DNA of 10,245 nt from Candidatus Bathyarchaeia archaeon (GTDB lineage: Archaea; Thermoproteota; Bathyarchaeia; Bathyarchaeales; Bathycorpusculaceae), in NCBI GenBank assembly GCA_038883715.1, contig JAVZLS010000027.1, positions 1 through 10,245 of the forward strand, written 5' to 3'. Shown here piece by piece: positions 581 to 10,245 of the stretch (the first letter of the stretch is position 1; the number at the start of each line of letters is the position of its first letter). Position numbers and translations under genes: made by a program. The notes beneath the pieces were generated by a model that was not told the DNA's origin, did not search any database, and saw only the letters and a list, made by a program, of their open reading frames with translations.

Positions 581-1168
581 CTAAAGTAGAAGTTCATAAC
601 CGCGGCATGTTAAAACTTCTTTCGGTTGATATTTCTTTTTGATCCCTTCTAAATCTGTTTCCGGCATTACATGAGCGTATACCTCAATTACATGCAAGCC
701 ATCCCTATCGAAAGCCAATAAATTTTCACGATTAGTTATAAGAACATGATGATACTCATAGAATTTTTTGAAACCATATTTTTCGAAAAAGATCCATGCT
801 TGGGGCTCAATGGACCACAGTTCTAATCGTTTCATGCCAAGTTTTTTGCCGCGTTTCACTCCTTCGTTCAAGAGCCTTGTTGCAATGCCCCTTCTCCTAA
901 ATTCTGGTAACACTCCAACATCCCACAACATGCCATTTCCCTCAAATTTTCTGTAGCAAATCTTTCCCGGAACTTCTTCAAGCTCAATGTCTAGGAAACC
1001 AATGATTTTTCCAGCCGCCAAAGCTACAAGTTCAACAGTTTTTCCGGCATAGGTACGCTTATTTCGTTCCAACCTCCTCTCGTTTGTGTTCAAATAAACC
1101 AGTGCGTGGCATTTTAACCACTCTTCTTTATCTTCAGTTTTGTATTCGCGAATAATTAAATCCATCAT
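581..1168 (-). CDS. GNAT-family N-acetyltransferase
   Basis: 195 aa. Acetyl-CoA-binding motif A (VGVLPEFRRRGIATRLL) and motif B region (RLELWS...FFEKYGF). GGGAG lies 5 nt before the ATG on the minus strand. Confidence 0.9.
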   Translation of the reverse strand: MMDLIIREYKTEDKEEWLKCHALVYLNTNERRLERNKRTYAGKTVELVALAAGKIIGFLDIELEEVPGKICYRKFEGNGMLWDVGVLPEFRRRGIATRLLNEGVKRGKKLGMKRLELWSIEPQAWIFFEKYGFKKFYEYHHVLITNRENLLAFDRDGLHVIEVYAHVMPETDLEGIKKKYQPKEVLTCRGYELLL

Positions 1169-1218
1169 GTCAGCTCCCTAACTTAAATTAATATATCTCA
1201 GTATTCAATTTAAGACCT
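1169..1218. promoter_or_regulatory. Divergent promoter region between the GNAT gene and pyrH
   Basis: 50-bp AT-rich gap between divergent starts. TATA-like TTAATATA at 1188-1195 ends 23 nt before the pyrH ATG, consistent with a leaderless mRNA. Inverted repeat CTTAAATT (1182-1189) / AATTTAAG (1207-1214). Confidence 0.55.
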
Positions 1219-1893
1219 ATGCGGATCGTGATCCGAATTGGCGGCTCCGTTGTTGCCACGCCAGTAAACATCCAACTAATGAGCGAATACGCCAAAATTT
1301 TGAAGAAACTGAAGGCTGAAGGGCACACGCTAGCAGTTGTTGTCGGCGGAGGAGCCCTAGCAAGAGATTTCATAAAAATAGCCAAAGAACTTGGCTTGGC
1401 GAAAAAAGACCAGGATGATTTGGCGATTAGCGTTTCAAGAATTTACGCCCAACTTTTCGCCAAAATGCTGGGTGGGCTGGCATGCGAAAAAATCCCAACA
1501 AGCGTAGAAGAGGCTGTTCAATGCCTAGAAAAGGGGAAGATTGCAGTTTTAGGCGGCTTAAAACCGGGCATGACAACGGATACTGTTGCCGCCCTAGTGG
1601 CTGAAAGCATAAAGGCGGACATGCTCATAAAAGCCACAGACCAAGAAGGCGTGTACACAAAAGACCCAAGAAAGCATCCAGACGCTGTAAAACTTGATAG
1701 GATAAGCTTTGAAGAACTGCCAAAAGTTTTAGCTGAAGATAGGCATAAGGCTGGAATCCACCAAATCTTAGACCCAGAAGCCATAAAAATTCTGAAGACT
1801 AAGCGAATAAAGGTCCATGTTTTAAATGGGTTTAAGCCAGGAAACCTTTTACTGGCGGTTGAAAGAAAAGCTGTTGGAACGTTAATAGAGTGA
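1219..1893 (+). CDS. pyrH: Uridylate (UMP) kinase, archaeal type
   Basis: 224 aa amino-acid-kinase fold with IGGSV, VVVGGGALARDFI, GGLKPGMTTDTVAA, ATDQEGVYTKDPRKHPDA and AGIHQILDPEA. Motifs and length match archaeal PyrH. Confidence 0.95.
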   Translation: MRIVIRIGGSVVATPVNIQLMSEYAKILKKLKAEGHTLAVVVGGGALARDFIKIAKELGLAKKDQDDLAISVSRIYAQLFAKMLGGLACEKIPTSVEEAVQCLEKGKIAVLGGLKPGMTTDTVAALVAESIKADMLIKATDQEGVYTKDPRKHPDAVKLDRISFEELPKVLAEDRHKAGIHQILDPEAIKILKTKRIKVHVLNGFKPGNLLLAVERKAVGTLIE

Positions 1894-7997: not shown

Positions 7998-8447
7998 GTG
8001 GTTCGGCGCTTTTATCCAAGCCAGCCGGTGGTCGGCGTAGGAGCCATAATAATCTGTGACGGGAAAATTTTGTTGGAGAAGCGTAAGGGCGAGCCTGGGA
8101 GAGGTAAGTGGAGTGTTCCTGGCGGTTTGGTGGAGCTTGGTGAGAGGGCGGAAGACGCCGTTATCCGCGAGGTTAAGGAGGAGACAGGGCTGGTTGTGGC
8201 TGATCCGGAGCTTATTGATGTTGTTGACAATATTGTCCGAGACGAAAATGGCGAGGTGAAATACCACTTCGTCATAATAGACTATTTTGTGAAGCTTAAG
8301 GGTGGAGAAATGCGGGCGGCGGACGACGCCGCAGAACTCCGCTGGGTTCCGTTAGGCGAGACGGAAAAATACGATCTGACAAAGACTTTGAGAGCTTTCC
8401 TCCAGCGGAACAAGAAAAGGTTAGAAAAACTCAACTCCGGTGTGTAG
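7998..8447 (+). CDS. Nudix hydrolase (MutT/ADP-ribose pyrophosphatase-like)
   Basis: Complete Nudix box G-LVELG-E-RAEDAVI-REVKEETGL. N-terminal PVVGVGAII and C-terminal AADDAAELRW. GTG start. Confidence 0.93.
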   Translation: MVRRFYPSQPVVGVGAIIICDGKILLEKRKGEPGRGKWSVPGGLVELGERAEDAVIREVKEETGLVVADPELIDVVDNIVRDENGEVKYHFVIIDYFVKLKGGEMRAADDAAELRWVPLGETEKYDLTKTLRAFLQRNKKRLEKLNSGV

Positions 8448-8458
8448 TAGTTTCGCCT

Positions 8459-9421
8459 TTATATTTCCTTTTGGAAGTATTTTTCTGGCGGCATCCTTTG
8501 GACGTAGATCCCGCGCTTTTGTTTTGTTAAAATTTTTTTCTTACATAAGTTATCTAAAGCTTTGCATAACGATGATTTTGGAAAGTTATAACGTTGATTT
8601 TTAAGCGAGTTATCTACTTCAGAAAATGTTCTGGGTTGGGCAAAGTAATTTTGTTGGTACATAAATAGTAATACGCTTTCCGGTTTTGCTGGTTCTCCTT
8701 CACGTGTTATAATCATAGTAGTGCTAACTTTTACTGTGTCGTTCACTATTCCAATCAGCTCCTTTTTTGCTCTGATTTTGTAACCTATACTTTCCAAGGT
8801 TTCTAGATATTCCATATAAGTTATTGGGATTTCGCTAATGCATGCTTTTGCAATTAATATTCCGGCGGCTCCTGTGTCATGAGCCCCTTTTCTTGACCTT
8901 TGAGAATAGATATACTTCATTCTGTTCATCAGAAAGTGAATATCGCTTATACGATTAGATAAAAGACTTATCAACTTGTTAACTTTATCCTCAAATTTAG
9001 CAATTTCAAGTACTTCATAATGCTCGCCGGCCATAGCGAGTCTTTTCACCAGTCTCTCGCATATTAGTCCGCAGCGAATTACAGAATCTCGAAATTCCCG
9101 CGTCATAAATTCTTCAAAAGCGTAGATATAATGCTGAAAGAAACAAATAACTAAGTCGAGTTCCTTGTAAATCACGCTTTTGTCTTCGCTTTTCCGCAAC
9201 ATGGTAAGGTAATAGTCGTTTATTATACGAGTTAGTCGATCATTGCCAAGATATTGCTTGCTCCAAACATCAAGAACCCATTTTAATTCTTTAAGGAGTA
9301 TATCCTCATCCGCGCTACTTAAAATAACATTATTCCAAGCTACATCATAGATCCTGTTAAGTACTCTTTCTATTTCATCCTCGTCTGGATACTTCTTTGG
9401 TTCGTCAGTGGAATAACCCAA
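8459..9421 (-). CDS. Hypothetical protein; putative HEPN-like domain plus C-terminal winged helix-turn-helix
   Basis: 320-aa ORF in AT-rich DNA, with AGGTGG 6 nt before the TTG start. Helix RDSVIRCGLICERLVKRL (E122) and R175-SRKGA-H181 resemble HEPN. Residues 246-310 (YFAQPRTFSEVDNSL...SSLCKALDNLCKKKILTKQKRGIY) resemble a winged helix. The CDS is well supported; the domain calls are moderate. Confidence 0.7.
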   Translation of the reverse strand: MGYSTDEPKKYPDEDEIERVLNRIYDVAWNNVILSSADEDILLKELKWVLDVWSKQYLGNDRLTRIINDYYLTMLRKSEDKSVIYKELDLVICFFQHYIYAFEEFMTREFRDSVIRCGLICERLVKRLAMAGEHYEVLEIAKFEDKVNKLISLLSNRISDIHFLMNRMKYIYSQRSRKGAHDTGAAGILIAKACISEIPITYMEYLETLESIGYKIRAKKELIGIVNDTVKVSTTMIITREGEPAKPESVLLFMYQQNYFAQPRTFSEVDNSLKNQRYNFPKSSLCKALDNLCKKKILTKQKRGIYVQRMPPEKYFQKEI

Positions 9422-9478
9422 ATTTGTCCACCTGATAAATTTAAATTGTAATTCCTTTTATAATTAAACTTGGTGTAT
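9422..9478. promoter_or_regulatory. Overlapping bidirectional promoter of the divergent gene pair
   Basis: TTTAAA at 9440-9445 inside the perfect palindrome AATTTAAATT (9438-9447). TTATAAAA on the minus strand at 9463-9456. Ribosome-binding motifs on both sides (CCACCT 9428-9433; GGTG 9472-9475). Confidence 0.55.
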
Positions 9479-10099
9479 ATGTCCGAGAATAAAAAGGAGT
9501 TTCGGTCCGGCTTTAGGATAAAATGGGCTGATAGAGAGATTGAATATTATGACGAATCTGGCAAATCTGTATTAGATGTTTTTAACAAAGTCTTTGAGCA
9601 TATAAAAGGCATCCCTGTTGGAGTAACACAGTTCATGACACCACCATCTGCTCCAACACCTCAAATTGGAATTACAAATAAACAGACTTTGATTGAGGGA
9701 GATGAGTATGATCGGATTGCAAAAGATGCAAATGTCGCCAAAGAAGATGTTGTTAAAGTTATCAAATTTGAGAAAAGCCAAGATTTTCCAGATCTAGTTC
9801 CGTTTTTGCCTATGCATCCAAACACCACGGATGCTGTAAGACTGGTATGTTATGCTATTCAAGTAGGATTGCAGAAGACACCCATAGAAGTGTCTTATTT
9901 AAAGAAAATCCTGAAAGGACCAAACGGTTATCCTTTACCGGGACGTGAACTAGGACTGATATTGGCTAATTTTCGTAGAAATGATGTAATAATAGCCTCA
10001 CAAACTAAAGGGAAATATAAACCGTTCACACTATCAACGAAGGGAATCGAACAAACAAGAGAGCTACTTAAGAAAGCCATAGAAGGCAAAGCTGGCTAA
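9479..10099 (+). CDS. Hypothetical protein with probable C-terminal winged helix-turn-helix
   Basis: The ORF track starts at TTG 9470 (209 aa); ATG 9479 following GGTG is an equally or more likely start. Small N-terminal beta-beta-alpha segment (FRIKWADREIEYY...VLDVFNKVFEHI), Pro-rich linker (TPPSAPTPQ), then a winged-helix-like end (ELGLILANFRRNDVIIASQTKGKYKPFTLSTKGIEQTRELLKK). Confidence 0.7.
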   Translation: MSENKKEFRSGFRIKWADREIEYYDESGKSVLDVFNKVFEHIKGIPVGVTQFMTPPSAPTPQIGITNKQTLIEGDEYDRIAKDANVAKEDVVKVIKFEKSQDFPDLVPFLPMHPNTTDAVRLVCYAIQVGLQKTPIEVSYLKKILKGPNGYPLPGRELGLILANFRRNDVIIASQTKGKYKPFTLSTKGIEQTRELLKKAIEGKAG

Positions 10100-10105
10100 A
10101 TTATT

Positions 10106-10245
10106 TCAACTCTTTTCGAAGAATAGGCGGGTTTCCCCCATAGTTTTTACGTCTAAGGCTCGGACTTTGACGACTATTGGGAAGTCTTTTACAATTTTGC
10201 CAAGCACTAGGCAGTGGTGGGGCGGCAGGTCCATGGCTATGGATT
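10106..10245 (-). CDS. 3' end of a gene entering from the right; probable HerA/FtsK-like (DUF87-type) ATPase
   Basis: The minus frame from 10243 reads SIAMDLPPHHCLVLGKIVKDFPIVVKVRALDVKTMGETRLFFEKS, stop at 10108-10106. The L-x-x-x-x-[AC]-h-h-h-G...P-h-h-V-K-V-R pattern resembles the final strands of HerA-family ATPases. Only 45 aa are visible. Confidence 0.55.
   Translation of the reverse strand, partial: SIAMDLPPHHCLVLGKIVKDFPIVVKVRALDVKTMGETRLFFEKS

Follow-up and report, generated by a model that had tools for sequence, protein, structure and literature searches.

Two divergent genes between a NUDIX hydrolase gene and herA

The window (the whole stretch of DNA that was analysed, 10,245 nucleotides) is one entire contig, C27, of a 1.33-Mb genome. 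Toward its right end, two divergent genes, encoding a 320-a.a. protein (P1) and its 206-a.a. partner (P2), lie between a NUDIX hydrolase gene and the 3′ end of herA. Hereafter, L-numbers denote the loci and G-numbers the genomes that were compared. The features are as follows.

7998..8447, + strand: NUDIX hydrolase, the host gene forming the left flank (profile search)
8438..10117, no strand: entire insert relative to congeners (congener comparison)
8459-9421, − strand: P1 gene, 320 a.a., TTG start
8477..8695, − strand: P1 winged helix (wHTH), residues 243-315, basic, ending in YxQRxPP
8771..9175, − strand: P1 putative HEPN domain, residues 83-217 (structure-based fold search)
8879..8899, − strand: predicted RNase motif of P1, R175-SRKGA-H181, followed by the invariant D182 (conservation)
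9176..9394, − strand: acidic N-terminal region of P1 (residues 10-82, pI 4.7) with three helices, given no fold assignment and barely covered by the fold search
9422..9478, no strand: shared promoter gap (alignment of 17 intergenic regions, by eye)
9479-10099, + strand: P2 gene, 206 a.a., or 209 a.a. from the TTG at 9470
9503..9613, + strand: P2 beta-beta-alpha domain, residues 9-45 (model and profile comparison)
9695..10078, + strand: P2 exchangeable C-terminal module, residues 73-200 (fold search and third-position comparison)
10106..10245, − strand: 3′ end of herA, the right flank, which runs on into contig C22 with nurA and the core wHTH genes

The first-pass annotation had described two divergent, AT-rich genes with a gap of less than 60 bp, whose stops lie 11 bp and 6 bp from those of the flanking genes, and each of these points was confirmed. 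The start-to-start gap is 48 nt from the TTG at 9470 and 57 nt to the ATG at 9479; the P1 stop is 11 nt from the NUDIX stop, and the P2 stop is 6 nt from that of herA (TGA at 10108-10106). The GC content of the cassette is 0.364 versus 0.449 ± 0.026, a value equally low in 7 of 3180 same-size windows of the genome. Elsewhere in the window, the GNAT gene at 581-1168 is likewise AT-rich for the genome (GC 0.39). Both open reading frames are real genes, since their dN/dS ratios between the window and L021 (0.05 and 0.11) indicate purifying selection. The right-hand neighbour was identified as herA because contig C22, which ends in nurA-herA, has 127 identical bases in common with the window end.

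The cassette site is empty in all eight congeners bearing both flanks. NUDIX and herA are joined there by 9-24 nt in seven congeners and by an equal junction, with a shorter BLAST match, in the eighth, indicating that about 1.68 kb was inserted in the window. The insert also replaced the final codons of both NUDIX and herA, and neither terminal repeats nor an integrase were found in the window. The empty site is also bridged by contigs from two hot-spring runs of one study, both probably DNA runs that carry no information on expression. One contig per run has 647 other letters between its NUDIX and herA matches (8309-10122 of the window), which may reflect another organism or the presence of some other insert at the site.

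The shared gap contains two conserved TATA-like boxes (9439-9447 and 9459-9468). Crossed TATA-like boxes in the same layout also lie between the divergent GNAT and pyrH genes of the window (1168-1219), and the idea that those of the cassette form a switch was therefore set aside. A sigma-70 scan of the window, which is ill-suited to archaea, stayed at chance level.

Domains of the two proteins

In the AlphaFold2 model of P1 (pLDDT 86), three helices at the N-terminus precede a helical bundle, which is followed by a winged helix. In a fold search that did not use Foldseek, residues 83-217 matched AF0298 (2hsb) with 120 of 126 residues aligned, an rmsd of 2.7 and a Z of 10.2, which is below the value of about 13 under which the tool advises caution with helical bundles. 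The other HEPN matches were 3o10, 6tug, 1wol, 1ufb, 4nqf, 9bj5 and 5yep; by name, the HEPN matches were AF0298, sacsin HEPN, Csm6, ST0689, TT1696, AbiV and SO_3166, and at least eight HEPN entries stood in the top 50. The same residues also matched helical domains of nucleotidyltransferases that share the HEPN fold (3jyy, Z 10.1). Foldseek searches against PDB and BFVD returned no match at E ≤ 0.001, and DUF4145 was touched by one of 28 P1 family members (E 0.053). In the ESM Atlas, P1 fell into its own archaeal cluster at 0.95, with a DUF4145-containing cluster at 0.84 as a lead only.

Because of the modest Z and the empty Foldseek result, the HEPN assignment leans also on the conservation of the motif. 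Among the 69 full-length sequences of 90 P1 homologues (the 21 shorter than 245 a.a. were left out), R175 and D182 are present in all 69 and H181 in 68. These homologues span down to about 20% identity; R111, E122, R123, Y172, D182 and Y205 are likewise invariant among them, and two other Rx4-6H matches in P1, R127-H134 and R157-H162, are not conserved. The fold and the conserved Rx4-6H motif both point to P1 as a probable member of the HEPN superfamily, so that the central HEPN domain proposed in the first-pass annotation falls on residues 83-217, with R175 and H181 as its kept motif residues. HEPN proteins form one composite RNase site per dimer, and by analogy with this established biochemistry P1 is a predicted RNase.

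The winged helix of P1 has a pI of 9.7; residues 243-320 matched BlaI-type, Hop2, Rok and Z-alpha winged helices in the fold search, and residues 261-307 weakly matched the PADLOC model HTH_IX (E 3e-4). The wHTH and residues 10-82 are the least conserved parts of P1 (51% mean identity). In the P2 model (pLDDT 80), a beta-hairpin plus helix (residues 9-45) is joined by a disordered linker to a helix-helix-hairpin and a winged helix, and thus both models carry the winged helices that had been suggested for both proteins. The P2 wHTH (residues 113-200) is basic, with a pI of 10.0. Residues 110-204 matched AF1382 (2qvo; Z 10.2, rmsd 3.1, 85 aligned) and STIV F93 (Z 9.7), and in the ESM Atlas P2 lies near unnamed clusters of about 200 a.a. 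at 0.90-0.92, mostly bacterial. For either protein, Pfam and NCBIfam gave no match above their curated cut-offs, PADLOC gave weak wHTH matches only, and sequence searches of the PDB gave nothing significant. A predicted 1:1 complex of P1 and P2 scored 0.02 against a mark of 0.32, which says nothing either way.

Linkage, spread and exchange of the partner module

The two genes occur together, as the first-pass annotation had expected of a true module. Of 19 close loci, 17 retain the complete divergent pair (14 of 16 metagenome loci and all three genome loci), and the remaining two are truncated by contig ends; P1 and P2 are divergent in all 18 close loci compared. The genomes in which full-length P1 was detected number 4 of 401 in the class, 1 of 401 in the phylum and 2 of 61 among relatives. 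The flanking genes vary among loci, which places the cassettes at many host positions. The insert lies directly after herA in the window, L021 and L022; these are sister cassettes at one site in the tree and hence represent one insertion event. A HerA-domain gene is also present near L025, and most other loci are away from herA. The cassette is rare and mobile between sites.

The neighbour scan covered 57 hand-picked proteins, mostly out of 148 listed neighbours, and profile matches identified defence or mobile neighbours at five close loci and at 6 of 12 distant loci (raw counts). These neighbours include methylase-Mrr and HNH genes (L027), a PDC-S39-like gene (L030), PIN (L032), terminase (L035), and SIR2 and integrase (L078). 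Housekeeping genes surround the cassette in the window, L021, L022, L023, L079 and L080. No relatives of the cassette proteins were found in the phage, plasmid and IMG/VR viral contigs searched; there was one weak plasmid match, for a neighbouring HEPN.

This distribution bears on whether the cassette takes part in conflict at all. P1 and P2 might instead be a pair of divergent regulators, with the HEPN domain binding a nucleotide or trimming RNA in a stress response, and the divergent wHTH layout typical of regulators, the housekeeping flanks in the window and the strong purifying selection would suit such a pair. Against this stand the occurrence of about 1%, the many insertion sites, the low GC and the defence neighbours, together with the lack of a linked target operon and the invariance of catalytic-type residues down to about 20% identity, and we consider this explanation quite improbable.

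Distant P1 homologues (22-46% identical) always adjoin a similarly built small gene. The distant loci contain one to four small wHTH genes, often co-directional, whose build was judged by eye where profiles gave none, and the partners belong to several unrelated wHTH types. A profile made solely from 47 loci of the core gene described below found the P1 wHTH but not P2, and it matched a small ORF in 10 of 12 distant loci (L040 and L042, near copies of L041, were left out). In L101, the gene order is wHTH, HEPN-wHTH, wHTH, a PLD-like protein (PDC-S05, 4e-16; Menshen NsnC, 7e-6) and another wHTH-like gene. Facing this HEPN operon, a wHTH-like N-terminus is fused to a PLD-like domain, with a 137-a.a. 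gene upstream (L101:8039-9245). A second HEPN-type gene is present in L045 and L100. That of L045 (3464-5964) encodes a 254-a.a. HEPN-wHTH protein with an R-x5-H motif and two upstream small genes of its own, back to back with the operon of the P1 homologue (HHalign to the P1 family, 49%, E 2e-4), and an 897-a.a. protein kinase-HD domain fusion adjoins the same cassette (L045:7438-10131). Also beside P1 homologues, a core-type small wHTH gene recurs together with a restriction-endonuclease-like gene (217-288 a.a., identified by eye, with no Pfam or PADLOC match) at L036:4967-6082, L039:545-1840, L100:1291-2553 and L102:333-1686.

The mean identity of P2 among the close loci is 48% versus 64% for P1. 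P2 is not hypervariable, since it is under purifying selection (dN/dS 0.07-0.23 in three pairs) and overall tracks P1, the pairwise identities of the two proteins being correlated (r 0.75, 18 loci, 0 of 2000 permutations). In the groups L025/L026/L031 and L028/L078, however, the two proteins are discordant. Here P1 identity is 86-90%, and about 20% of its synonymous third positions differ, whereas the C-terminal module of P2 shows 40-66% identity and differs at about 50% of such positions, a value equal to background (Fisher p 1.5e-4 to 1.1e-9). The pairs were picked by closeness of P1, and the module is saturated in four of the five pairs with a P1 third-position difference below 25%, all four coming from these two groups of loci. 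The beta-beta-alpha domain of P2 is 67-79% identical in the discordant pairs and tends to travel with P1, given that nucleotide identity rises in a step close to the linker of P2. In AU tests of 17 loci (L079, 99% like L027, was left out), the tree of each gene was rejected by the data of the other (p 2e-6 and 2e-52). Synonymous sites would not become saturated by selection alone, which indicates recombination, and we read these comparisons as a probable swap of the P2 C-module under near-identical P1 genes, in which either P1 or P2 may have been the mover. The P2 of the window shows no such discordance with its nearest relative, L021.

The exchange weighs on the role of P2. In a type II-like toxin-antitoxin pair, P1 would be a constitutive RNase that P2 blocks while repressing the shared promoter, and the cassette would persist by addiction. 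The strict linkage and the conserved spacing between the anchor codons of P1 and P2 (116-131 nt across 17 loci) would fit, wherever the contig extends far enough, P1 was always seen with a small wHTH-type neighbour, and a P2-like gene of G580 with no P1 nearby has a stop codon. This explanation persists because the beta-beta-alpha domain, nearer to P1 in its conservation than the C-module is, could be the constant binding part. On the other hand, the C-module is exchanged beneath near-identical P1 genes, distant P1 homologues are partnered by several unrelated wHTH types, and no conserved operator was seen by eye in the 17 aligned intergenic regions. The putative toxin would moreover have its own DNA-binding domain, which is unusual among type II toxins. 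The first-pass annotation had offered the antitoxin as one role for P2; its co-occurrence with P1 stands, and the antitoxin role is weakened by the exchange of the main P2 domain and the lack of a visible operator. We regard a toxin-antitoxin pair as unlikely, though a serious candidate.

The G580 gene (L098:6300-6946) is interrupted by an in-frame stop, with no P1 within 14 kb around it; its relatives P0190-P0192 (35-37% identity) may constitute a subfamily lacking a partner.

Relation to the nurA-herA array and to known systems

A core gene of about 135 a.a., consisting of a beta-beta-alpha domain and a wHTH, is conserved beside nurA-herA, with 32 of 47 core loci at most 1.5 kb from nurA. 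A single-sequence search with P1 matched this gene in 43 of 60 relatives, one of which also has a full-length homologue. HHalign aligned the P1 wHTH with the core family at 99% (E 1e-18), the core set having been partly chosen with the P1 profile. Judged from these comparisons, the P1 wHTH belongs to the clade of the core gene. The beta-beta-alpha domain of P2 matched a 137-a.a. protein of L082 (E 6e-6) and core-array genes of G590 and G549 (about 1e-5), which points to kinship with the N-termini of other small wHTH proteins. No sequence likeness was detected between the P2 wHTH and the core wHTH proteins, including the trio found with the core gene on contig C22 of G000. In G590, four such small genes stand in a row before nurA-herA. 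These arrays of three or four beta-beta-alpha/wHTH genes (L076:5506-6994 and 9495-9899 on C22 of G000; L099:6318-8491) are without an effector and without a Pfam name.

The cassette could be a guard that plugs into a host wHTH/NurA-HerA machine: its domains, as copies of the core wHTH and beta-beta-alpha domains, would join the complex and fire the RNase upon viral attack on it. The likeness of the P1 wHTH to the core family and of the P2 N-terminus to core-array genes would suit a guard, as would the insertion directly after herA in three loci and the HerA-domain gene near L025. However, the three herA-linked loci represent a single event and most others are not near herA, the HHalign comparison shares the selection noted above, and the P2 wHTH is unlike the core wHTHs; we think a guard of this kind decidedly improbable.

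The two genes are linked, rare and found at different sites in their hosts; P1 combines a HEPN fold with a conserved R-x5-H motif. The best reading is a defence cassette, not a classical toxin-antitoxin pair. More specifically, we give about even weight to a predicted role in defence, as a horizontally transferred cassette that represents the poly-wHTH kind (see below) in its smallest form and couples one RNase effector to one DNA reader that can be exchanged. By the established biochemistry of HEPN proteins, P1 would dimerise to form one composite RNase site. P2 may oligomerise via its beta-beta-alpha domain and bind DNA via the basic wHTH module, which would set recognition and be swapped from strain to strain much as restriction systems exchange their target-recognition domains. 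P1 would stay inactive until recruited by its own wHTH to P2-marked or P2-coated DNA; alternatively, an invader protein displacing P2 from DNA might be the trigger. Clustering of P1 would then lead to cleavage of RNA, probably tRNA or mRNA, and to arrest of the infected cell.

Several observations count against defence. Many loci lie amid housekeeping genes, the counts of defence neighbours are raw, and no phage, plasmid or viral relative was found in the collections searched. The HEPN match has a modest Z, an empty Foldseek result and a single DUF4145 contact among 28 family members. P2 tracks P1 overall, all discordant pairs belong to just two groups of loci, and the divergent layout is unlike the operons with upstream wHTH genes described for poly-wHTH systems.

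A further reading, which we consider improbable, is that the cassette is a guard assembled out of components of a conserved archaeal machine: the small beta-beta-alpha/wHTH proteins encoded beside nurA-herA would form a host complex that coats or processes DNA, the reader and the RNase would plug in via homologous domains, and recombination of the exchangeable reader module would reset its specificity. If true, the predicted poly-wHTH immunity would be tied to a housekeeping ancestor in TACK archaea, and HEPN activation would proceed without a second messenger, an RNA guide or an antitoxin. 

Through the shared domains, the nurA-herA-linked wHTH array conserved in Bathyarchaeia also becomes accessible to study, and the natural exchange of a reader under an unchanged RNase would, if confirmed, amount to a retargetable HEPN switch.

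Among known systems, the cassette resembles the HEPN-MNT pairs (HepT/MntA; SO_3166-SO_3165, 5yep) and the stand-alone Abi protein AbiV (9bj5) in the HEPN fold and the R-x4-6-H motif, with fold-match Z values of 7.0 for 5yep and 7.2 for AbiV. Unlike the HEPN-MNT pairs, it has no nucleotidyltransferase; the partner is a wHTH protein and the HEPN itself has a fused wHTH. A profile search, the fold search of P2 and a motif scan found no adjacent minimal nucleotidyltransferase, and the earlier statement that the cassette lacks an MNT or CARF partner holds. CnuE of the CoCoNuT systems also combines a wHTH and a HEPN domain in one chain, but, as described in the accessible text of PMC11090510, its elongated wHTH is N-terminal and it needs CnuH/CnuBC, whereas the P1 wHTH is C-terminal, the reverse order. 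No helicase or McrBC linked to the cassette was found in the flanks of the loci examined.

The nearest tested analogue, on the available text of PMC13405049 and PMC7736814, is the type IX retron retron-Kva2, which likewise pairs a HEPN RNase with a separate winged-helix protein and cleaves tRNA once a phage HTH protein mimics the WH (PMC13405049). The weak HTH_IX match of P1 is a further likeness. According to the same text on the retron, Kva2 lacks the canonical R-x5-H motif that the cassette has, forms a co-directional operon with an ncRNA, and needs a reverse transcriptase and msDNA. The insert in the window has room for the P1 and P2 genes only, and no reverse transcriptase motif was found in the 35 loci scanned, apart from one spurious match inside a HEPN gene.

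In the openly readable literature, PMC3710099 and PMC12839542 included and most subscription papers excluded, we found no description of a HEPN-wHTH/wHTH pair. The first-pass annotation had recognised no named system, and Pfam, NCBIfam and PADLOC indeed provide no name; the description as undescribed is nevertheless weakened, because the layout fits the poly-wHTH (PRA-wHTH) systems predicted computationally by Li, Burroughs and Aravind (bioRxiv 10.64898/2026.10.19.760177, October 2026). The text of that preprint, in which Bathyarchaeia are not named, describes fast-evolving wHTH genes whose N-terminal extensions are of at least four kinds and which precede an effector that is mostly HEPN but also HKD phosphoesterase, TIR or cyclase, and some arrays without an effector.

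As in these systems, a HEPN effector lies beside a wHTH gene in the window cassette and its related loci, and wHTH copies are multiple, with two domains in the window pair and one to four small genes at distant loci, where HEPN or PLD-like effectors and effector-less arrays also occur. Unlike their upstream, co-directional wHTH genes, the window cassette has a single, divergent partner, although the co-directional order of wHTH and effector occurs in several distant loci; its HEPN also has a C-terminal wHTH of its own and an 80-residue N-terminal extension, departing from the preprint's description. Searches with small-wHTH queries found no bacterial loci. Relative to the main text of the preprint, whose figures and supplement may show more, the exchange of the partner module and the link to the nurA-herA array are new. 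Overall, the cassette looks like a poly-wHTH system in its smallest form, by layout description rather than by a sequence-level match, and at 1.7 kb and two genes, from what is probably a hot-spring archaeon, it would be the simplest test case for these predicted systems.
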